DNA of 43,427 nt from Gammaproteobacteria bacterium. Lineage in GTDB: Bacteria > Pseudomonadota > Gammaproteobacteria > UBA9214. This document shows positions 17,532 through 27,259 of this stretch, one piece after another (within the stretch, counting starts at the first letter, position 1; each line of letters starts with the position of its first letter). Below the pieces are notes generated by a model. It was given only the letters and a program-made list of their open reading frames with translations, ran no database searches and had not been told where the DNA came from. Location of the stretch: contig QIFB01000203.1 of NCBI GenBank assembly GCA_003230545.1, positions 1-43,427 on the forward strand, read 5' to 3'. A program made the translations under genes and the position numbers.

Positions 17532-18317
17532 ATGCGGATATTCAAACCATGGTTTGCAGCGATTGCGCTGTTGCTGGTAACCGGCGCCACGCCGGTAATT
17601 GACGGGCTGGTGGCACAGTTACGGATCGACCATGCGGCCCTGGTGGCGGCCGGAAACGATTTCCGCATGCGTCGTGACCGCAACAACCTGGCCGGGGCCG
17701 AGGCCGCCGACTATGCCGCCTATGTCGCCCGGCTGCAGCGGCGTGTAATTGAGGACTGCGTGGCACTGGCCCGTTCCGGTGAAACCTTGCCGGCAGATCT
17801 GCCGTGCCCGGAGACCCTGCCGCCACTGACGCAATCAGCAGACATCGACCAGCAGGCGGAGCAAACCCGGGGTGAACAGGTTGCCGTCCTCGATGCAGAG
17901 CTTGGTACCGGGCTGGGTGAGTATGATGAACGGCTGCTGCGCGAGCAGGAGCGTATCAAGGCGGCCACGCCGCTCCCTGACGAGACCGGCGGCGGCAGTA
18001 GCGGCGGGCAGGGCGACGGCAGCGGTGATGGCGCCGGTGAGGAGGATGCCGACGCAGAAGCAGACGGTGCAGCCAGTGGTGACGCTGCGGGGGAAACGGG
18101 CGGCCAACAGCCGTCACCCGATTCCGCCAGTCGCGGTACCGGTGCCGGTGGCAGGGCACAGCAAACCGGGTCCGGGGCGCCGCCGGACATCCCGGACGGT
18201 AGTGATGATGATGTGGTGGCCCGCCAGCTGCGTGAAGCGGCCGAGAAGGAAACCGATCCCGAGCTGAAGAAGAAGCTCTGGGAGGAGTACCGGAAATACA
18301 AGCAGGGGACCCGCTGA
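17532..18317 (+). CDS. Secreted acidic low-complexity protein (operon gene 1)
   Basis: 261 aa. Signal peptide MRIFKPWFAAIALLLVTGA, a central G/D/S/A/E-rich tract (GGGSSGGQGDGSGDGAGEEDADAEADGAASGD...), and a conserved-looking tail DDDVVARQLREAAEKETDPELKKKLWEEYRKYK. Confidence 0.7.
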   Translation: MRIFKPWFAAIALLLVTGATPVIDGLVAQLRIDHAALVAAGNDFRMRRDRNNLAGAEAADYAAYVARLQRRVIEDCVALARSGETLPADLPCPETLPPLTQSADIDQQAEQTRGEQVAVLDAELGTGLGEYDERLLREQERIKAATPLPDETGGGSSGGQGDGSGDGAGEEDADAEADGAASGDAAGETGGQQPSPDSASRGTGAGGRAQQTGSGAPPDIPDGSDDDVVARQLREAAEKETDPELKKKLWEEYRKYKQGTR

Positions 18318-18327
18318 GCGCGCTGGC

Positions 18328-19521
18328 ATGAAACCGTTTACCCCGCTTCTGCTTGTGCTGCTGTTGCTGATATCCGGCTGCACCACCCTGGGTACGCAGC
18401 GTGATGTCAGCGGGTATGTGCCGCTCAATAGATCGGTCAGCGAGGTCCCCGAAGACCAGCTGCTCGATATCTGGATCGAGGTATTCGACCCGGGGGTACT
18501 GCCGACCGACCCCGAGGATGCTGCAGGGCTGTCCCAGGATATTCGCGAGGCCGAGGCCCGCTACTTGCCCGAGCAGTTGCGCGCTACCATGGAGAAGACC
18601 GGTTACTGGGGTGCGGTGCGCATGGTGCCGCGCGGCACGGAGGGCAGCGAGGTGCTGGTTTCCGGTACCATTCTGGTGTCCGATGGCGAGCAGCTGGAGC
18701 TTGCGATCAGTGCGCAGGATGCCACCGGGCGCCAGTGGTTCAATGCGGTCTATGAGGCCGAGGTGCCTGCCCTGGTGTACCAGTCAACCCGGAGGCGCGG
18801 CGAACCTTTCCAGTCCCTGTATAACGCGATTGCCAATGACCTTGCGAAGTTCCGCAGCTCATTGACGGCCGCGGACATCACGAATATTCGCCGGGTCGCG
18901 GAACTGCGTTTTGCCACCGACCTGGCCCCCGAGGCATTTGCAGGCTACCTCGAACGCAGCGAGTCGGGAGACTATCGCATCGTTCACCTTCCCAGCTATG
19001 ACGACCCGATGTACCGGCGCGTGCAGGCCATCCGTGAACGCGATTTCCTGCTGATCGATACCCTGAACGGGCACTTCGACAATTTCTATCGCGAAATGGA
19101 CAAGCCTTACAGCGAGTGGCGCCGGGCGCGCAGCGAGGAAGCGGCCGCCTTGCGCGCAATCGAAAAGGAGGCCCTGAAGCGCAAGCTGCTCGGGATTGCC
19201 GCAATTGCCGGGGCCATTGCCATCGAGGTATCGGGCAATAGCAGCAATGCCGGTGGGCGCGTGGCGCGTGATGTCCTGGTGCTGGGTGGTGCCTATGCCA
19301 TCAAGACCGGTTTCGACAAGGACTCGGAGACCGAAATTCACCGCGATGCCATCGAGGAGCTGGGCGAATCGTTTGCCTCCGAGGCACAGCCACTGGTGGT
19401 CGAAGTAGAAGGCGAGACCCATGAACTCACGGGTTCGGCAGAGGCGCAGTACTCTCAGTGGCGCGGGCTGCTGAAACAGATCTATACTATCGAAACCGGG
19501 CTTCCCGGTACGGTCAACTGA
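18328..19521 (+). CDS. Hypothetical lipoprotein (operon gene 2)
   Basis: 397 aa. Lipobox in MKPFTPLLLVLLLLISGCTT. Starts 10 nt after gene 1. A hydrophobic segment (LLGIAAIAGAIAIEV) lies near the C-terminal third. Confidence 0.7.
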   Translation: MKPFTPLLLVLLLLISGCTTLGTQRDVSGYVPLNRSVSEVPEDQLLDIWIEVFDPGVLPTDPEDAAGLSQDIREAEARYLPEQLRATMEKTGYWGAVRMVPRGTEGSEVLVSGTILVSDGEQLELAISAQDATGRQWFNAVYEAEVPALVYQSTRRRGEPFQSLYNAIANDLAKFRSSLTAADITNIRRVAELRFATDLAPEAFAGYLERSESGDYRIVHLPSYDDPMYRRVQAIRERDFLLIDTLNGHFDNFYREMDKPYSEWRRARSEEAAALRAIEKEALKRKLLGIAAIAGAIAIEVSGNSSNAGGRVARDVLVLGGAYAIKTGFDKDSETEIHRDAIEELGESFASEAQPLVVEVEGETHELTGSAEAQYSQWRGLLKQIYTIETGLPGTVN

Positions 19522-19529
19522 GGTCATGC

Positions 19530-21005
19530 ATGGATCCCGGTGAGCAGCCCGGCACCCGTCATACGCTCCCTGATCTCCGGCCGCCCGGCACCGCGAATGA
19601 TCCGGCGGCCGCCGCGACCGGCAACCACGGCAAGGTCTGGCTGGCGCTGGCGGTTATGTTCGCACTTGGCCTGGTCGTCGTGCTGATGCTGCCGCAACTG
19701 GTATCCAAGCCGACCCCGGTAACCCCTGAACAGATAACCCCCCAACCGGTAACCCCGGCAGCGCCAGCGGTGGATACGCAGGCAGCACGTCGTGCCGCCG
19801 AGCAGGCCCTGCAGGACTATTTGCAGTTGCGTGCACGGCTGGAACTCGCCAATGCCGCGGCCTGGGGCGAACCGGAATGGGAAATTGCCGCGCAGGCGGC
19901 ATCCAACGGTGACCGCCTGTTCGGGCAGCGGCAGTTTGGGTTGGCCGCGGAGTCCTATGGCGCAGCGCGGCAGGGTCTGCAGACCCTGGAGTCTGTACGC
20001 GGGCAGCGGCTTGCCACGGCGCTGGAGTCCGGCCGGCAGGCGCTGGCCGCGGACAATGGCCCGGAGGCAGTACAGCACTTCGAATTGGCGCTGGCCATCG
20101 ATGCCGCCAATGAAGCCGCACAGGCCGGCTTGCAACGCGCACAGGTGCGCCCGCAACTGCTGCAGTTGATGGCTAGCGGTGAGCAGGCCGAGTCTGCCAA
20201 TGAGCTTGCCACCGCACAGACGGCCTACCGGGATGCCGCACAGCTGGATCCGTCCTGGGCCCCGGCGACAGCTGCATTGCAGCGCGTGACGAAGCAGCTT
20301 ACTGACAGCGCCTACCGGGACGCCATGAGCCGGGCACTCACGGCACTGGATGCGGGACAGCTGCAGGCGGCCCGTGCGGCATTACGCGAGGCGGCTACCC
20401 TGAAACCCGATGATGCGGCGCTGCGGGATGCCCAACGGCAGCTGTCACACGCAAGTCAGCGGGCGCAGCTGTCCAGCCTGCAACGGCAGGCCGGCGCAAA
20501 ATCCCGGGTCGAGGACTGGTCTGCCGCAACGGCACTGTACCGGAAGGCACTGGTCATTGATGCGCAAGCCGGTTTTGCCAGTGACGGCCTGGCACACGCG
20601 CAGGACCGCCTGCGCCTGCATCAGCAACTGGATCGCTACCTGGCCGACCCGGCCCGGGTTTATTCCGAAAAACCGCTGGCCAACGCGGAACGGTTACTTG
20701 AATCTGCCGGCAGTGCACCGGCCGCGGAGCCCCGGCTGGCTGGCAAGATCGACCGGCTGGAGCAACTGGTATCCGGAGCCCGCACCCCGTTGCCGGTCAC
20801 ACTGACTTCGGATGGCCTGACCAGCGTGGTGATCTACCACGTGGGCCGGCTCGGGAAATTTACCCGCCAGCAGCTGGAGCTGCGGCCGGGAACCTACACG
20901 GCGATCGGGTCCCGGGCCGGGTACCGCGATGTGCGTCGTACCTTTACCGTGCTGCCCGGCCGCGACCAACCGGTAGTGGATATTCGCTGCGAGGAACCGA
21001 TTTGA
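19530..21005 (+). CDS. Membrane-anchored TPR-like (Ala/Gln-rich helical repeat) protein with a C-terminal PEGA-like beta domain (operon gene 3)
   Basis: ORF 19458..21005, with start set at ATG 19530 (MDPGEQ...), 8 nt after the gene 2 stop. TM helix VWLALAVMFALGLVVVLMLPQLV. Repeated A-x-x-A-L/Y helical pairs. C-terminal segment ELRPGTYTAIGSRAGYRDVRRTFTV resembles PEGA. Confidence 0.7.
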   Translation: MDPGEQPGTRHTLPDLRPPGTANDPAAAATGNHGKVWLALAVMFALGLVVVLMLPQLVSKPTPVTPEQITPQPVTPAAPAVDTQAARRAAEQALQDYLQLRARLELANAAAWGEPEWEIAAQAASNGDRLFGQRQFGLAAESYGAARQGLQTLESVRGQRLATALESGRQALAADNGPEAVQHFELALAIDAANEAAQAGLQRAQVRPQLLQLMASGEQAESANELATAQTAYRDAAQLDPSWAPATAALQRVTKQLTDSAYRDAMSRALTALDAGQLQAARAALREAATLKPDDAALRDAQRQLSHASQRAQLSSLQRQAGAKSRVEDWSAATALYRKALVIDAQAGFASDGLAHAQDRLRLHQQLDRYLADPARVYSEKPLANAERLLESAGSAPAAEPRLAGKIDRLEQLVSGARTPLPVTLTSDGLTSVVIYHVGRLGKFTRQQLELRPGTYTAIGSRAGYRDVRRTFTVLPGRDQPVVDIRCEEPI

Positions 21006-23413
21006 GCCGCGTTTTTTTCATCGACACTGCCGCGGGCGAGCGGCGAGCCGGCGAGCCGGATTTCCCGCTGGGTATCGGCGGGACCGCCTCCCGGGCAGCC
21101 GTGGTATTGCCCGGTGTCCCCGCCGACGCGGTACTGGCCTGGATCGCGCTGGCCGAAGGGCATGCCTACATCCAGCCGGCCGCTGACTCGGTGGAACTGT
21201 TTCACAACCATGAGCGCGTGCTCACATCAAGCTGGCTGAAATCCGGTGACCTGGTGCAGCTGGGGGACTCGGTGCTGCACTGGGACGTTAAGGGTGACCA
21301 GGTGTTTATCAAGGTACGGCAACGCGCCAGCGAACCGGAACTGACCCCTCCGCCGGCACCACCACCGGCACCTGCTGCAGCGCATGAGACGGGGCCGGTT
21401 ACCATGACATCGGCCACCACGTCTTCAACGAGTCGCCGCCGGCTGCGTCAGCTGGTAATTGCCGTGTTCAGCCTGTTGTTGCTGGTCGCTGTGTTCGTGT
21501 TGCTCGCGACCCCGGTAGTCATCAACATCAGTCCGGCACCGGAGACACAATCACTGCGCGGTTTTCCACCAGCCGTGCCGGTAGGCCGGCGTCTGCTCGT
21601 CGTGCCGGGCAGCTACACCCTGCGCGCCACCCGGGAAGGTTATCGTCCGCTGGAGCAGACCATCGAGGTAACCGGTGACGGGTTCCAGGCATTCGACTAT
21701 GAATTGCAGGAGCTGCCGGGGCGCGTACGCATCACGCTTGACCCGGACGTGCCGTTCAGGATCATGGTCGATACAGTCGAGGCGTTGGTGGACGCCGCGG
21801 GCATTGCCGAAATCGACCGCGGCCGGCAACGCTTGCGCATCGAGACCGCGCGCTACCTGCCGGAGGTGCGCGAGCTGGAAATCGCGGGGCGCGGCGTACT
21901 GCAGGAGCTTGCCATCACCCTGCAGCCAGCCTGGGCCAGCGTGCAGCTCGACAGTAACCCGCCGGGGGCCGAGGTGGTGGTTGATGACGTGGTGCTCGGC
22001 ACAACACCATTGGCCACCGAGCTGCTGCAGGGACAGCGCACCATCCAGCTGTCACTCGCCGGTTACCAGCCGGTCGCCGTGCAACAGCTGATCGAGGCCG
22101 GCACCACGCTGGCGCTCGATGTGATCGAGTTGCAGCCGGCCGATGGCCGGCTGATGCTGGACAGCAAGCCGACCGGCGCCACGGTCAGCATTGACGGAAA
22201 CTTTCAGGGCAGCACGCCGGTCACCGTTGCGCTGGCCTCCGGTACCGAGCACCGGGTGCGCCTCAGCAAGCCGGGTTACCGGGTATCCGAACAGCGCGTC
22301 ACCCTGGAAGCGGATGCCGAGCAGCCGCTTGTCGTGGAGCTGGCGGCCGAGTACGGAATCGTGTTCGTGACTTCGCGGCCCGCAGATGCCCGCCTGAAAC
22401 TGGATGGCAAACCGGCGGGCAAGGGCACGCAGCGCCTGCGCCTGACCACGCGGGCGCATACCCTTGAATTCAGCAAATCCGGTTATACAGCGCGGAAGGT
22501 GACAGTGACCCCGCGTGCCGGTACCAGCCGTAATGTGGACGTCACGCTGAAGACCCTGGCGCAGGCAAAGGCCGATGCCACGCCACCCAAACTACGCACC
22601 GCGGCCGGCCAGCAGTTGCGCCTGGTGCAGCCGGCCGGTCGCTTCCGGATGGGAGCCTCACGCCGCGAGGCCGGGCGGCGCGCCAATGAAAGCCAGCGGC
22701 TGGTGGAGCTCACCCGGCCGTTTTACTTCGGCCTCAGGGAAGTCACCAATGCCGAATACCGGCGCTTCCGGGCTGCGCATGACTCCGGTAGTGCCGAGGG
22801 CGTATCACTCAACGGGGACAACTACCCGGTGGTCAATGTCAGCTGGGAGGATGCGGCACGCTATTGCAACTGGCTCAGCCGCAAGGACAAGCTGCCGCCG
22901 GCGTACCGCGAGCAGGACGGCCGCATGCAGCTGCAGATCCCGCCAAACACCGGTTACCGCTTGCCGACCGAGGCCGAATGGGCCTACGTGGCCAGGGTGG
23001 CCGGGCGCACGGCGCCGGCGCGCTATCCGTGGGCCGGCAGTTACCCGCCGGTCTCGGTGGCCGGAAATTTCGCTGACGCACGCATTGCCGATACCCTGGC
23101 CAATGTCGTGCCGGGTTATGATGACGGTTACCGGGGCCCGGCGCCGGTCGGCAGTTTCACTGCACACCCGCTGGGGTTCTACGACCTGGGAGGTAACGTG
23201 GCAGAATGGACCAATGATTATTACGCGGTCTACCCGGGCATGGCCGACAAACCGGTAACGGATCCTGCGGGTCCGGCCAGCGGTGACCACCGCGTTGTGC
23301 GGGACGCGAGCTGGCGCCACGGCAGTGTGACCGAGCTGCGCCTGAGTTACCGGGACTACAGCCGCACAGCGCGCGATGACCTCGGATTCCGGATTGCACG
23401 TTATGCACCTTAA
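21002..23413 (+). CDS. FHA-like / TM / multi-PEGA / FGE-sulfatase (SUMF1-type) domain protein (operon gene 4)
   Basis: 803 aa. The TTG start overlaps the gene 3 stop (TTGA). The N-terminus is FHA-like (...SSWLKSGDLVQLGDSVLHW). TM helix LVIAVFSLLLLVAVFVLLATPVV. PEGA-type repeats (SNPPGAEVVVDDVVLGTTP, SKPTGATVSIDGNFQGSTP, SRPADARLKLDGKPAGKG). C-terminal FGE-sulfatase motifs (EVTNAEYRRF, VSWEDAARYCNWLS, YRLPTEAEWAYVAR, GGNVAEWTNDYY, LGFRIARY). Confidence 0.85.
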   Translation: MSRVFFIDTAAGERRAGEPDFPLGIGGTASRAAVVLPGVPADAVLAWIALAEGHAYIQPAADSVELFHNHERVLTSSWLKSGDLVQLGDSVLHWDVKGDQVFIKVRQRASEPELTPPPAPPPAPAAAHETGPVTMTSATTSSTSRRRLRQLVIAVFSLLLLVAVFVLLATPVVINISPAPETQSLRGFPPAVPVGRRLLVVPGSYTLRATREGYRPLEQTIEVTGDGFQAFDYELQELPGRVRITLDPDVPFRIMVDTVEALVDAAGIAEIDRGRQRLRIETARYLPEVRELEIAGRGVLQELAITLQPAWASVQLDSNPPGAEVVVDDVVLGTTPLATELLQGQRTIQLSLAGYQPVAVQQLIEAGTTLALDVIELQPADGRLMLDSKPTGATVSIDGNFQGSTPVTVALASGTEHRVRLSKPGYRVSEQRVTLEADAEQPLVVELAAEYGIVFVTSRPADARLKLDGKPAGKGTQRLRLTTRAHTLEFSKSGYTARKVTVTPRAGTSRNVDVTLKTLAQAKADATPPKLRTAAGQQLRLVQPAGRFRMGASRREAGRRANESQRLVELTRPFYFGLREVTNAEYRRFRAAHDSGSAEGVSLNGDNYPVVNVSWEDAARYCNWLSRKDKLPPAYREQDGRMQLQIPPNTGYRLPTEAEWAYVARVAGRTAPARYPWAGSYPPVSVAGNFADARIADTLANVVPGYDDGYRGPAPVGSFTAHPLGFYDLGGNVAEWTNDYYAVYPGMADKPVTDPAGPASGDHRVVRDASWRHGSVTELRLSYRDYSRTARDDLGFRIARYAP

Positions 23414-23651
23414 AAACAGACAAACGCGTTACCAACTGTGCTCGCTGGTGCTGCTTGCGGCGGTATTTATACCGTGCGCTGGCGCCGACCCGGTCACCGG
23501 GCAACAGCCGCAGGCGCCGCCGGTCACGGAACCGGCCGAGCGCAAGGTGCCGGCAGGGCCGGCGCAACAGCCGCCTGCCCCGGCACCCACCTTTACACCA
23601 TCCGAGCAGATCGGGGCCGACAGTGCCGTGTCGTTCCCGGTCGATATCTGA
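23403..23651 (+). CDS. Small secreted Pro/Ala-rich protein (operon gene 5)
   Basis: ATG 23403 overlaps the end of gene 4 by 11 nt. Signal-like MHLKNRQTRYQLCSLVLLAAVFIPCAGA, then a P/Q/A-rich linker and a SEQIGADSAVSFPVDI tail. Ends 16 nt before the MotA-like gene. Confidence 0.5.
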   Translation: MHLKNRQTRYQLCSLVLLAAVFIPCAGADPVTGQQPQAPPVTEPAERKVPAGPAQQPPAPAPTFTPSEQIGADSAVSFPVDI

Positions 23652-23667
23652 AAGGAAACCGCACGCC

Positions 23668-24462
23668 ATGAAAAAGAACTTTCCCGCCGAGCTTGTCTAT
23701 CAGGTGTTTTCACTGCTGATCGCGTTCATCCTTGTGCACGCCGTCTACGTCACCCTTATCAGGCCCCAGGCCAGTGCGTTCATGGAACAGGAAGCGGTAA
23801 ATATGCGCGCCGATCCCGGCTACGTGCAACAGCGGTCTTTTTATGTCGTGGTCAAGGACTACGAGCAGGAAACCTCCTTCGTGCTGATGCTGTGGGCGTT
23901 TTCCATTCTTGGCTACAAGGGCAGGGCGGTATATCGCCAGCAGCAGCTGCTGGAGCGCGATCTGCTGCAACTCCCGGACAATTTGCCGATCGGTGCGGAG
24001 GATACGCGCAGTCTTGTGGAACGGATCCGCTCATTGCCCGAGCAGATGCACGACTGGCTGCTGCCGCGTGCGCTGTTGACCGCCATCGAACGCTTTGCGG
24101 CGACACGCAATGTGCAGAACGTCTCCACGGCGGCGCGTGATGTGTGCAGTTCGGAGGGCGAGCGGCTGGAGTCGGAGTTGTCGATTATCCGCTACATCGC
24201 CTGGGCCATCCCGTCGGTCGGCTTTATCGGCACGGTGCGCGGCATCGGGGATGCCCTGGGGCAGGCACACCGCGCGGTTGAGGGGGATATCACCGGCGTG
24301 ACCGCGAGTCTCGGCGTGGCCTTCAATTCGACCTTTATTGCGCTGGTCATCAGCATCGTGTTGATGTTCTTTGTACACCAGATGCAACTGATGCAGGAGC
24401 GCCTGGTGCTGGACAGCGAACGCTACGTCGACAGCTGGCTGGTGCGGCGGTTGAAGAGCTGA
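23668..24462 (+). CDS. MotA/TolQ/ExbB proton-channel family protein (operon gene 6)
   Basis: ATG 23668 with AAAGGAAA upstream; 264 aa. The C-terminal half has the family signature helices (IRYIAWAIPSVGFIGTVRGIGDAL and LGVAFNSTFIALVISIVLMFFVH). Confidence 0.85.
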   Translation: MKKNFPAELVYQVFSLLIAFILVHAVYVTLIRPQASAFMEQEAVNMRADPGYVQQRSFYVVVKDYEQETSFVLMLWAFSILGYKGRAVYRQQQLLERDLLQLPDNLPIGAEDTRSLVERIRSLPEQMHDWLLPRALLTAIERFAATRNVQNVSTAARDVCSSEGERLESELSIIRYIAWAIPSVGFIGTVRGIGDALGQAHRAVEGDITGVTASLGVAFNSTFIALVISIVLMFFVHQMQLMQERLVLDSERYVDSWLVRRLKS

Positions 24463-24478
24463 ATACCCTGCGTGCATC

Positions 24479-25570
24479 ATGAAACGTCGCCCGCTTTCCC
24501 CGTTCTCGCTGTCGTTTCTCGACATTATGTTTTGCGGCTTCGGCGCCGTGGTGCTGCTGGTACTGATTCTCAATTACGACACGGTGAAGGCGCGCAACCA
24601 GACGTTTGCCGACCTGCGTTCCGAGGTCGTGCTTCTCGAACAGGAGGTGCTGGTCGGTGAGGATGATCTGGTTGTGGCACGCAACAACCTGGAGGCCGTT
24701 GACCGGGAGTTGGTCGAGATGCAGGGAGAATCCGCGCGGGTCATTCGCACCTCCAGGGAACTGGAGCTCGAGGTTGCACGCATGTCCCGTGAAACCCTGG
24801 CCAGTCGCGAGCACATCAACCGTCTGTCGTCGGACCTGAAGAGCCTGGACACCGAGTACAAGCGCCTCGGCGCGGCCGTGGCCGCCGATCGCGATGCCGG
24901 CGAAAAGGTGCGCGCATTCAAGGGGGAGGGTGACCGCCAGTACCTGACCGGCCTGAAGGTGGGCGGCAAGCGCATCCTGATACTGGTGGATGCCTCGGCC
25001 AGTATGCTCGGCGAAACCATTATCAACGTGATCCGGCGCCGCAATATGAACGCTGCCAGCCGGCGCAGTGCGCCGAAGTGGCGGCGCGCGCTGGCGACTG
25101 CGGACTGGCTGGTTAGCAACATCCCGGCCACTGCTCGCTTCCAGCTGTACCGCTTTAATACAACGGCCCGGGCGGCGGTTCCCGGGTCGGACGGAAAATG
25201 GCTGCAGGCTTCCAGCCGTGCCGATGTGGACGGCGCCGTCAGTGCCTTGCGTGCGGTTATACCGGAAGGTGGCACCAGCCTGTACCAGGCGTTTGCCGTC
25301 GCGAAAAAACTCTCGCCACAACCTGACAATATTCTCCTGGTAACGGACGGCCTGCCAACCCAGGGCCGCAGCAAGCCCACGGCAACGACCGTGTCATCAC
25401 AGCAGCGGCTCGCTTATTTCGACAAGGCCGCACGCGCACTTGGCAAGAATATTCCCGTCAACACGATCCTGCTGCCGATGGAGGGGGACGCCTGGGCCGC
25501 GGCCGCGTTCTGGAAGCTGGCCATCAACAGCCGTGGTTCCTTCATGACACCGTCCCGGGACTGGCCATGA
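24479..25570 (+). CDS. ExbD/TolR-like TM (conserved Asp) + coiled coil + vWA domain protein, paralog A (operon gene 7)
   Basis: 363 aa. N-terminus MKRRPLSPFSLSFLDIMFCGFGAVVLLVLIL, a ~120-aa heptad-rich segment, then a vWA domain with MIDAS DxSxS (LILVDASASM), GGTSLYQAF and LLVTDGLPT. Confidence 0.8.
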   Translation: MKRRPLSPFSLSFLDIMFCGFGAVVLLVLILNYDTVKARNQTFADLRSEVVLLEQEVLVGEDDLVVARNNLEAVDRELVEMQGESARVIRTSRELELEVARMSRETLASREHINRLSSDLKSLDTEYKRLGAAVAADRDAGEKVRAFKGEGDRQYLTGLKVGGKRILILVDASASMLGETIINVIRRRNMNAASRRSAPKWRRALATADWLVSNIPATARFQLYRFNTTARAAVPGSDGKWLQASSRADVDGAVSALRAVIPEGGTSLYQAFAVAKKLSPQPDNILLVTDGLPTQGRSKPTATTVSSQQRLAYFDKAARALGKNIPVNTILLPMEGDAWAAAAFWKLAINSRGSFMTPSRDWP

Positions 25571-26571
25571 ACCGGCGCAACCGGCGTACAATCGAGATCT
25601 TCAGCCTGTCGTTCCTCGACGTAGTCTCCGTCGGTTTCGGGGCGATCATTCTGCTGCTGGTCATCGTCAAGGTTTCCGAGCCGCACGTGATCGAGCAACT
25701 GGCCGTCAACCTGTCCGGGCTGGTCCAGCGACTGGAGGCGGAAGTGTACCGCATCCGCGGCGATACCACGGTGCTGAACCGCGACCTGACCGAGCGCCAG
25801 CAACAGATCTCCGTGCAGCGCGAAAAACTCGCGCGTCTCAAAGGCGATCTCTCCTCGGTACGCGGCGAGTACCGGACCACCCGCAATGATCACGAGGCGC
25901 AAACGCTGATCGAGAGCCGGCTGGAAACCGCACAGCAGAGTCTCACCGACGAGATGAAGCGGCTGGCCGGTGCGGGTTACCGCCGGCCCGCGAGCAGTGC
26001 CATAGGCGGTGTCCCCGTGGACAGCGAATACATTATCTTCATTATCGATACCTCCGGATCCATGAACCAGAACGCCTGGGCGCTGGTACTGCAAAAGGTG
26101 AAGGAAGTGCTGGCGATTTACCCGCAGGTGAAGGGAATCCAGGTCATGAATGACATGGGTGACTACATGTATTCACAGTACAAGGGCAAGTGGATACCGG
26201 ACACACCGGCACGCCGCAAGGCCATCAACAAGCGGCTGGCTGGCTGGGCGCCGTTCTCCAACTCCAGCCCGGTGGAAGGCATTGAGGCGGCCATCCGGCG
26301 CTTCCATGCGAAAGACAGGCGGATCAGCCTGTACGTCTTCGGCGATGATTTCGCGCGCGGTTCCATCCAGACAGTCCTCGACACCGTGGCAAAGCTTAAC
26401 CGTGCCGGCCAGTCAGGGAAGCGCCGCGTGCGTATTCATACTGTCGGGTTTCCGGTACAGTTCGGCCAGGGCGGCTTGCCGGTGAACGCGGTGCGTTACG
26501 CCGCGCTGATGCGCAAGCTTGCCGAGGAAAACGGCGGCAGCTTCGTCGGCCTTAACAGCGTGAGTCCGTGA
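25567..26571 (+). CDS. ExbD/TolR-like TM (conserved Asp) + coiled coil + vWA domain protein, paralog B (operon gene 8)
   Basis: 334 aa. The ATG overlaps the gene 7 stop (ATGA). N-terminus IFSLSFLDVVSVGFGAIILLLVIV, a coiled coil, then vWA with MIDAS IIDTSGSM and YVFGDDF. Confidence 0.8.
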   Translation: MNRRNRRTIEIFSLSFLDVVSVGFGAIILLLVIVKVSEPHVIEQLAVNLSGLVQRLEAEVYRIRGDTTVLNRDLTERQQQISVQREKLARLKGDLSSVRGEYRTTRNDHEAQTLIESRLETAQQSLTDEMKRLAGAGYRRPASSAIGGVPVDSEYIIFIIDTSGSMNQNAWALVLQKVKEVLAIYPQVKGIQVMNDMGDYMYSQYKGKWIPDTPARRKAINKRLAGWAPFSNSSPVEGIEAAIRRFHAKDRRISLYVFGDDFARGSIQTVLDTVAKLNRAGQSGKRRVRIHTVGFPVQFGQGGLPVNAVRYAALMRKLAEENGGSFVGLNSVSP

Positions 26572-26631: not shown

Positions 26632-26721
26632 GTAGCCCGGATGGAGCGTAGCGTAATCCGGGATTACTAATTTGAAACCAGTTACCCGGGTTTCGGCCCT
26701 GAGGGCCTGCACCCGGGCTAC
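26632..26721. repeat. ~90-bp MITE/REP-like intergenic element, copy 2
   Basis: GTAGCCCGGATGGAGCGTAGCGTAATCCGGG...CCAGTTACCCGGGTTTCGGCCCTGAGGGCCTGCACCCGGGCTAC. Same termini and internal modules as 7047..7136. Confidence 0.8.
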
Positions 26722-26767
26722 GTCTGTTTTAAACGTAACTGGGGGGTTCTGCCAATTGGATACCAGA

Positions 26768-27259
26768 ATGAACTGTACCTACCTGCTGCTGTTCCCGCTG
26801 ACCCTGTTGTTTACCGCTGCCGCGCATGCGTTCGGTGGTGGTCTGCCCGACCCGTTCGACTGGTATGGTGGTAATGATTACGGTCATTACGATGCTCCCT
26901 ATGGTGGCTACGGGTCTGGTTACCCGGGTCCTGGTGGTTACGGGCAGGGATATCCAGGCCCCGGCGGTTACGGGTACCCGGGTTATTCGGCCTATGGTCC
27001 GCCGCCAGGTGCGCAGACGGCGGAAATCGAGCGCCTGAAGGCACGCATCAGGAAACTGGAACAGGCAGCGCAGCAGGGAACTTCCACTTTCGGTAACACC
27101 GGGCAAGGTTTGCACCGGCAACTGGAGCACCAGTGGCCGGCACCGCATATCGGCGTCCGGCCCGATTACCCGGGCGTTGCGCAACCGGCCCCTCGACAGT
27201 CAGCGGAGCCGGTATATCAGCCAGACTACGGTATTCCCCCGCGTTACCGTTTTCAGTAA
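26768..27259 (+). CDS. Secreted Gly/Tyr/Pro-rich repetitive protein with a coiled-coil segment (sulfur-globule-protein-like composition)
   Basis: ORF 26672..27259, with start set at ATG 26768. Signal peptide MNCTYLLLFPLTLLFTAAAHA, then GGGLPDPFDWYGGNDYGHYDAPYGGYGSGYPGPGGYGQGYPGPGGYGYPGYSAYGPPPG, then TAEIERLKARIRKLEQAAQQ, then a P/Q/Y-rich tail. Confidence 0.7.
   Translation: MNCTYLLLFPLTLLFTAAAHAFGGGLPDPFDWYGGNDYGHYDAPYGGYGSGYPGPGGYGQGYPGPGGYGYPGYSAYGPPPGAQTAEIERLKARIRKLEQAAQQGTSTFGNTGQGLHRQLEHQWPAPHIGVRPDYPGVAQPAPRQSAEPVYQPDYGIPPRYRFQ

Follow-up and report, generated by a model that had tools for sequence, protein, structure and literature searches.

A TolQ/ExbB-type candidate motor with paired vWA-domain axle proteins, encoded in a conserved eight-gene bacterial cassette

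We analysed a stretch of 43,427 nucleotides (nt), contig QIFB01000203.1 of assembly GCA_003230545.1 from a gammaproteobacterium (hereafter the window), in which three codirectional, closely packed open reading frames (ORFs) at 23668-26571 code for a channel protein and for two membrane-anchored proteins with von Willebrand factor A (vWA) domains. We propose that this trio probably constitutes an inner-membrane motor that is driven by protons and belongs to the ExbB/TolQ/MotA superfamily, with an axle formed by the two vWA paralogs; the best reading of its function is that of a periplasmic force transducer of the Ton/Tol kind, driven by the proton-motive force. The architecture itself is not new, having been predicted computationally in 2025 (PMC12204202). 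The stop codon of the channel gene is separated by 16 nt from the start of the first vWA gene, which in turn overlaps the start of the second by 4 nt:

23668..24462, plus strand: channel subunit of the TolQ/ExbB/MotA family, 264 amino acids (aa), assigned by Pfam PF01618
24479..25570, plus strand: vWA paralog 1 (working name vwa1), 363 aa, assigned by Pfam VWA_2, AlphaFold2 and Foldseek
25567..26571, plus strand: vWA paralog 2 (working name vwa2), 334 aa, assigned by its full-length homology to vwa1

These genes were compared with 81 related loci, the survey covering about 43 kilobases (kb) of the source genome and about 20 kb from every related one. The order channel-vwa1-vwa2 is kept in all 81 loci with enough sequence, and both paralogs are found in every one of them, pointing to a heterologous pair.

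The channel protein belongs to the Pfam MotA_ExbB family (PF01618; E=2.7e-14, 53.4 bits, cut-off 22.9), and a 100% identical database protein, from a Thiohalobacterales metagenome-assembled genome (MAG), is entered as 'MotA/TolQ/ExbB proton channel family protein [Thiohalobacterales bacterium]'. Since its NCBIfam scores fall far under the cut-offs of both TolQ (3.6e-6, 26.9 bits vs 221) and ExbB (3.5e-5, 24 bits vs 135), it represents a subfamily separate from TolQ and ExbB proper. A profile of 50 diverse orthologs matches the TolQ chain 8odt_A (E=0.002) across the last two transmembrane (TM) helices and places three channel residues, T189, T222 and P182, on T145, T178 and P138 of TolQ. All three are invariant in 50-71 orthologs, and the pore helices as a whole show a mean top-residue frequency of 0.88. 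The pore of TolQ/ExbB is lined by these threonines, which face the Asp of TolR/ExbD. That pore threonines and partner Asp face each other in this manner is also stated in PMC12204202. Because T189, T222 and P182 match pore residues of TolQ and are invariant in the orthologs, we regard the protein as TolQ/ExbB-like and not specifically MotA-like, its sequence being nearer TolQ/ExbB than MotA. The preliminary description of this DNA had spoken of a MotA-like gene followed by two paralogs: the family and the gene arrangement hold, and the label is to be moved towards TolQ/ExbB. The residues concerned are the following:

24211-24213, plus strand: TM proline P182, from the alignment to TolQ P138
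24232-24234, plus strand: pore threonine T189, from the alignment to TolQ T145
24331-24333, plus strand: pore threonine T222, from the alignment to TolQ T178
23857-23871, plus strand: invariant acidic cluster D64/E66/Q67/E68 (DxEQE), from ortholog conservation

The last of these, the DxEQE cluster, belongs to the N-terminal half of the protein and directly precedes a short hydrophobic helix (residues 69-83); a channel with three TM helices and one with four would place it on different sides of the membrane, periplasmic or cytoplasmic.

The two proteins encoded downstream are 27% identical over their first 192 aa in a BLASTP comparison (E=8e-12), and hhalign matches their family profiles across 321 columns (probability 99.9%, E=8e-35); by these comparisons vwa1 and vwa2 are true full-length paralogs. 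Both can be divided into an Asp-bearing helix, a stalk and a vWA head with a metal ion-dependent adhesion site (MIDAS):

24503-24571, plus strand: Asp-bearing TM helix of vwa1, residues 9-31, with Asp15 at 24521-24523 (GAC)
24584-24928, plus strand: heptad stalk of vwa1, about residues 36-150, from a periodicity test
24956-25567, plus strand: vWA domain of vwa1, about residues 160-363, with the MIDAS motif DASAS at 24989-25003, then T266 and D290
25600-25668, plus strand: Asp-bearing TM helix of vwa2, residues 12-34, with Asp18 at 25618-25620 (GAC)
25684-25971, plus strand: heptad stalk of vwa2, about residues 40-135, from a periodicity test
26014-26568, plus strand: vWA domain of vwa2, about residues 150-334, with the MIDAS motif DTSGS at 26047-26061, then SNSS and the D260 motif

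Each paralog opens with basic residues followed by a single hydrophobic helix, which reads LSPFSLSFLDIMFCGFGAVVLLV in vwa1 and FSLSFLDVVSVGFGAIILLLVIV in vwa2. The N-terminal family consensus is xxRRxxxxFSLSFLDxMxCGFGAVxLLF, and its helix portion, FSLSFLDxMxCGFGAVxLLF, contains no His and thus no SHLS motif of the TonB/TolA type. The helix Asp is kept in all 96 diverse relatives spanning the position, in 51/51 relatives of a second alignment and in 34/34 vwa2 orthologs. Together with the recurrence of the trio in the 81 loci, such constancy goes far past what chance would give. Among the same 51 diverse relatives of vwa1, the invariant residues are F13, D15, C19, G22, L26, S173 and D290, with D171, S175 and G265 near-invariant; D18, D161, T162, S163, S165, S233 and D260 are invariant in the 34 orthologs of vwa2. 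The conservation is concentrated in the helix, with mean top-residue frequencies there of 0.78 and 0.84 for the two paralogs, against 0.61 and 0.68 for the respective whole proteins. For comparison, two other proteins of the operon score 0.41 and 0.44 in their plain membrane anchors, in the same set of genomes, against 0.45 and 0.52 over their full lengths. In these alignments, then, no part of either paralog is better conserved than the Asp helix, whereas the plain anchors of the operon are poorly conserved. A Cys four residues past the Asp is invariant in the vwa1 relatives and is found in at least 90% of the vwa2 orthologs; vwa2 of the window has Val at this position (residue 22, 25630-25632), and the Cys is therefore not strictly required in both subunits. 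Lys and Arg number on average 3.5 in the 12 residues before the helix vs 1.7 in the 12 after it, being more frequent before than after in 88% of 228 sequences and less frequent in 1%. As this positive-inside bias predicts a cytoplasmic N-terminus, the paralogs are predicted to be N-in/C-out and their C-terminal vWA parts should be periplasmic.

Between helix and head, the stalks contain no proline and show a hydrophobic periodicity that peaks at exactly 3.5 residues. The observed periodicity power was reached by 0.15% of 2000 shuffles for residues 36-150 of vwa1 and by none for residues 40-135 of vwa2, the stalk profile of the latter also matching coiled-coil proteins in the PDB. The spacing from the helix Asp to the MIDAS is near-constant within each paralog family (a median of 153 residues in vwa1; 141-143 residues between the 10th and 90th percentiles in vwa2), which suggests a defined stalk length.

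The head of vwa1 scores 28.3 bits against the Pfam family VWA_2 (cut-off 27), and that of vwa2, at 19 bits, lies under the cut-off and is assigned as a vWA domain by the full-length homology to vwa1. In the AlphaFold2 model of vwa1, most 10-residue blocks from residue 161 onward have a mean predicted local distance difference test (pLDDT) score of 78-90, with dips at 171-190, 291-310 and 331-340. Foldseek relates this head to solved vWA structures, led by ITIH1 (9e-9) and BatB (3ibs; 1e-7) and extending through weaker matches (down to about 1e-5) to CLCA1, the anthrax receptor and integrin I domains; the MIDAS-type vWA domain of CaV alpha2-delta is also among the matches. The MIDAS residues D171, S173, S175, T266 and D290 of vwa1 and D161, S163, S165, S233/S234 and D260 of vwa2 are invariant or nearly so, and both families thus conserve the full putative metal site, comprising the DxSxS motif, a later Thr/Ser and a later Asp. 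A basic insertion of about 20 residues (178-199; 25010-25075; consensus TIVNIIRxRNM...KW) stands right after the DxSxS motif of vwa1, is conserved in that family and is absent from vwa2; it may serve as a lid or specificity loop and so render the two heads non-equivalent. The preliminary description had given the positions of both Asp codons and both MIDAS motifs together with the helix sequences, and all of these recur exactly; its further statements that a heptad-rich stretch leads to a vWA domain with an intact MIDAS and that, by analogy with ExbD, this domain would be periplasmic are likewise borne out, the latter by topology prediction. Loss of the TM Asp in orthologs, which it named as a ground for refutation, is not seen, and its interpretation as a whole is supported.

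The same description had the paralogs take the place of ExbD/TolR/MotB, and the searches agree with it. No ExbD or OmpA Pfam domain occurs in the cassette proteins, and the full paralogs as well as their 40-46-aa N-terminal fragments have no match to PF02472 (ExbD/TolR) in Pfam at E<=10, the fragments matching no Pfam family at all. An OmpA-family peptidoglycan-binding domain was likewise sought in Pfam, NCBIfam and PADLOC, with no match. Using phmmer with E. coli ExbD, TolR and MotB as queries, of which the ExbD sequence was checked against the PDB, we detected no homolog either in the window or among the ORFs lying within about 10 kb of the genes in the 81 loci. As no such homolog is found there, the channel is left with no other candidate partner nearby, and it retains the Thr pair that needs an Asp partner.

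The structural match to BatB bears on an alternative, namely that the vWA proteins, like BatA/BatB, are anchored in the membrane as passive scaffolds or adhesins of the periplasm and merely share an operon with a channel that acts by itself or together with an unlinked ExbD/TolR. In that case the Asp would have another role, e.g. in helix packing or membrane insertion. The Bat proteins do share with this system membrane-anchored MIDAS vWA domains and a co-encoded TPR protein; however, the Bat operon is without a MotA/TolQ/ExbB gene, a conserved Asp helix or a coiled-coil stalk. This alternative gains from the lack of significant hidden Markov model (HMM) similarity between the helix and ExbD/TolR/MotB, and an unlinked ExbD/TolR is compatible with the span of sequence surveyed. 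It has, however, to accommodate an invariant Asp in the most conserved segment of both proteins, where the real anchors in the operon are the least conserved parts of theirs, and a channel that keeps the very Thr pair known in TolQ/ExbB to face the partner Asp. Moreover, the trio stays together in all 81 loci, across phyla, with both paralogs always there, and the AlphaFold 3 models in PMC12204202 insert the helices into the pentamer. We therefore consider passive scaffolds unlikely.

The closest published counterpart of the trio is the set of "TPH-vWA" pairs (for trans-pore helix) described beside tolQ-like genes in a study that used computation without experiments (PMC12204202; Mol Biol Evol 2025). 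These proteins are mostly heterologous pairs with a TolR/ExbD-like trans-pore helix and a conserved Asp, they occur mainly in Proteobacteria and Verrucomicrobia, and in the AlphaFold 3 models the Asp pair is enclosed by the ring of Thr residues of a TolQ-like pentamer; for the related family of vWA transducers, no phenotype of a deletion is known (PMC12204202). With them the window trio shares a tolQ-like gene followed by a pair of single-TM vWA proteins with no tolR, exbD or motB gene, an Asp-bearing trans-pore helix without SHLS, the conserved channel Thr and a range that takes in Proteobacteria and the PVC (Planctomycetes-Verrucomicrobia-Chlamydiae)/Verrucomicrobia lineage; we see no difference in kind. 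The text of PMC12204202 leaves out the remaining genes of the cassette, the coiled-coil stalk and the two cassette subtypes. We found no other paper on the vWA family or on the whole PEGA/FGE-sulfatase/MotA-ExbB/vWA cassette. The earlier view that the architecture had not been characterised accordingly stands for experiment and falls for prediction.

Several points weigh against the motor interpretation. The sequence homology of the helix to ExbD/TolR is weakly above chance: the best local hhalign match to a small ExbD/TolR N-terminal alignment sets LSFLDIMF on TPFIDVML, Asp on Asp, and is as short as 8 columns (P=0.008, probability 4.7%), with 3.3% of shuffles of the ExbD/TolR TM core scoring as high. 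A HMMER profile of the helix run against the PDB recovers no ExbD, TolR or MotB, just chance membrane helices (NDUFB4, SecY). The AlphaFold2 monomer of the channel is poor (mean pLDDT 50, from an alignment limited to sequences of 81-94% identity) and is compatible with either three or four TM helices, and the N-terminal half of vwa1 is modelled with low confidence. The trio fits every TPH-vWA feature examined, the comparison with the Idiomarina loihiensis seed family being one of described features; our literature search found no experiment for any family member; and the ligand and biological role offered below are guesses. Nevertheless, the indirect evidence for a helix of the ExbD/TolR type is much stronger than the direct homology.

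Comparison with the characterised systems sets out what is shared and what is peculiar to the motor that we propose. As in ExbB-ExbD as well as TolQ-TolR, the channel comes from the same Pfam family, with the Thr pair and the Pro aligned to TolQ, and the partner, bitopic and N-in, has its Asp at the cytoplasmic end of the helix (SFLDVM vs PFIDVM or PLLDVL). In contrast to those systems, there is no periplasmic domain of the ExbD fold (PF02472) and no third subunit of the TonB/TolA type with an SHLS helix; the putative axle proteins themselves carry the output, in the form of coiled coil and vWA heads, and two paralogs replace the usual homodimer. MotA-MotB and PomA-PomB share the superfamily and a TM Asp in the small subunit, whereas the present system lacks an OmpA-like peptidoglycan-binding domain, a recognisable plug and nearby flagellar genes, and is closer to TolQ/ExbB. 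With GldL-GldM and PorL-PorM it has in common a bitopic small subunit with a long, periplasm-spanning extension and, if GldK/PorK and GldJ are included, a co-encoded lipoprotein and a protein of the FGE-sulfatase fold. It differs from GldL-GldM in having, in place of GldL, a PF01618 channel with the TolQ Thr pair, in bearing the charged residue on the axle helix, as TolR does, and in lacking any other genes of the type IX secretion system; its FGE-sulfatase protein, moreover, has PEGA repeats and a membrane anchor and reaches 111 bits against the GldK cut-off of 350.

The trio forms the 3' end of a conserved eight-gene cassette, 17532-26571, in every locus with enough flank. Because the five upstream genes (17532-23651) travel with the trio in essentially every related genome with enough flank, the functional unit is the eight-gene cassette rather than three genes. 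Clustering of all ORFs of the 81 loci gave no further broadly conserved gene, and the gene downstream (26672-27259) is not conserved; the unit is therefore 17532-26571. The five upstream genes are:

17532..18317, plus strand: first cassette gene, secreted protein, 261 aa; 43 loci, always upstream of the lipoprotein gene
18328..19521, plus strand: lipoprotein, 397 aa, with the lipobox LLISGC conserved in orthologs; 49 loci
19458..21005, plus strand: TPR-like bitopic protein, 515 aa, with an alternative start Met25 at 19530; 53 loci
21002..23413, plus strand: PEGA/FGE-sulfatase bitopic inner-membrane protein, 803 aa (Pfam PEGA 2e-43, FGE-sulfatase 7.6e-41); upstream of the channel gene in 62 loci
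23376..23651, plus strand: small secreted Pro-rich protein, 91 aa as an ORF, with a likely start Met10 at 23403 and a signal-like hydrophobic segment

The 261-aa protein combines an acidic, low-complexity region rich in Gly, Ser and Asp with a conserved C-terminal helix (...DDVVARQLREAA...LWEEYRKYK). The lipoprotein of the window has no Pfam or NCBIfam match and no credible sequence match in the PDB, and its orthologs share no Pfam family (isolated weak matches in 2 of 20). From N- to C-terminus, the 515-aa protein has a TM segment (residues 57-85), a linker rich in Pro, TPR-like helical repeats and a beta domain, and its Congregibacter ortholog gives weak TPR matches. In the 803-aa protein, a cytoplasmic N-terminal domain of about 110 aa is followed by a TM segment (about 146-180), at least four periplasmic PEGA domains and a C-terminal domain of the FGE-sulfatase fold; it matches GldK of NCBIfam with 6.7e-32 and 111 bits (cut-off 350) and is thus GldK/PorK-like in sequence. 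By eye, without alignment to a catalytic FGE, we see no Cys in the segment matching the catalytic Cys pair of FGE (...DASWRHGSVTELRLSYRDY...). The N-terminal fragment of this protein has no Pfam match, and an FHA-like label given to it by eye was dropped for want of Pfam or PDB support.

The small secreted protein ends in ...SEQIGADSAVSFPVDI, and the same motif closes its Congregibacter counterpart as ...SEQISEDLSVAFPVDI (locus L068, 7591-7869). It is variable except for its last 17 or so residues, which the Thiohalobacterales MAG and Congregibacter have in common as SEQIxxDxxVxFPVDI-stop, and homologs in 36 loci are flanked by the FGE-sulfatase gene on one side and by the channel gene on the other. 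This FPVDI-ending peptide could be a ligand of the MIDAS, by way of its Asp or of the carboxylate at its C-terminus. In about 44 of the 81 loci, but in neither the window nor its close relatives, an extra gene for a soluble protein of 430-480 aa stands between the channel gene and vwa1 (L068, 8678-9976), defining a second cassette subtype. This protein has no Pfam or PDB relatives, and could be a cytoplasmic partner of the channel; an Hsp70/FHA-like label assigned by eye to the 432-aa version was dropped, as neither Pfam nor the PDB supports it. The non-conserved ORF downstream of the cassette (26672-27259) has a signal peptide, GYGxGYPGPGGYG repeats and a short coiled-coil-like segment, with no Pfam match.

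Taken together, these components allow us to posit how such a motor might work, with the complex itself, its 5:2 stoichiometry, the heterodimer, the rotation or other movement and the ligand all inferred. The TolQ-like 264-aa protein would form an outer ring, a pentamer by analogy, whose central pore would be occupied by the N-terminal helices of vwa1 and vwa2, most likely one copy of each, in place of ExbD/TolR/MotB. D15 and D18 would each face the ring of conserved threonines, T189 and T222, and their protonation and deprotonation would move the dimer relative to the ring. The movement would be relayed by the two coiled-coil stalks, which are free of proline, about 100-115 residues long and, if continuous, roughly 15 nm in length, to the periplasmic vWA heads, where the MIDAS sites may clamp an acidic group of a periplasmic or outer-membrane partner. 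This partner is probably encoded in the cassette, with the lipoprotein, the PEGA/FGE-sulfatase protein, the acidic secreted protein and the FPVDI-ending peptide as candidates, and the whole eight-gene cassette would thus amount to a Ton/Tol-like, envelope-spanning, force-transducing apparatus. A bolder form of this proposal, which we hold tentatively and below even odds, is that the trio is the engine of an undescribed, self-contained envelope-spanning machine (17532-26571), in which the two MIDAS heads of a heterodimeric axle grip a cassette partner, be it the FPVDI-ending peptide, the acidic secreted protein or an assembly of the lipoprotein with the PEGA/FGE-sulfatase protein, and the motor pulls or rotates it by means of the proton gradient.

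A complex of the same composition might instead work from the outside in, as a sensor in which ligand or load on the vWA heads gates ion flow or conformation and the signal leaves through the cytoplasmic domain of the channel, the N-terminal domain of the 803-aa protein or the extra soluble protein of other genomes. That the cassette encodes no outer-membrane barrel or other obvious load, and does encode cytoplasmic modules (the N-terminus of about 110 aa and the 430-480-aa protein), is in keeping with such a role. These modules, however, are without recognisable signalling domains, and, to our knowledge, every characterised member of the superfamily (MotAB, ExbBD, TolQR, GldLM, ZorAB) turns ion flow into mechanical work. 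We regard a sensor as quite improbable. An anti-phage module of the Zorya kind, built on a MotAB-type core, is scarcely credible: the channel does have a very weak PADLOC match to ZorA (E=0.011, 12.8 bits), but neither Pfam nor PADLOC finds ZorB, ZorC, ZorD or ZorE or a nuclease or helicase effector, the other cassette genes code for envelope proteins, and the cassette is syntenic across phyla, unlike the variable defence islands, with no plasmid copies. A role in defence was rejected, the PADLOC matches being at noise level and Zorya effectively refuted.

The proposed axle proteins are widely distributed. In a protein collection clustered at 90%, vwa1 has more than 6000 close relatives, nearly all of exactly 363 aa and at least 72% identical, and at 50% identity there are 1416 cluster representatives (E<=0.001). 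A survey of one genome per species, whose count is a lower bound, finds the vWA family in at least 591 species genomes of several phyla, with hosts in the Gammaproteobacteria (Lysobacterales, Halieaceae, Cellvibrionaceae) and further ones in Desulfobacterales, Desulfuromonadales, Myxococcales, Acidobacteriota, Kiritimatiellia and Isosphaeraceae; Congregibacter variabilis IMCC43200 and Biformimicrobium ophioploci NKW57 are cultured hosts. The cassette (window 18000-26000) has 63-66% G+C vs 55-58% in the 10 kb flanking it on each side, and this contrast, along with the patchy spread across phyla, hints at horizontal acquisition. A plasmid-borne origin was rejected, as tblastn gave no match among 72,556 plasmids. 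One locus (L053, CAMAXE010000004.1), from a MAG labelled Klebsiella pneumoniae, carries the cassette in full, about 50% identical to that of the window; since no other Enterobacterales occur among the 80 loci listed, the contig may have been put in the wrong bin or given the wrong label.

Motors of the ion-driven 5:2 type supply the power for flagella, for TonB-dependent uptake, for maintenance of the envelope by Tol-Pal, for gliding and type IX secretion and for Zorya defence, and each new output module of these motors has opened new biology. If the proposal is correct, the axle proteins would carry their own integrin-like, metal-dependent heads without an adaptor of the TonB/TolA type, a simpler and different delivery of force to the periplasm or outer membrane. 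Should the more far-reaching form hold as well, the cassette would represent a third way to energise the outer envelope beside Ton/Tol and GldLM, spread horizontally across at least six phylum- or class-level lineages. What is new here over the published prediction is the full conserved gene set, the two cassette subtypes and the breadth of a large and highly conserved vWA family, cultured hosts included. The conserved gene set offers candidate loads, the conserved residues offer targets for mutation, and the cultured hosts open the prediction to testing.

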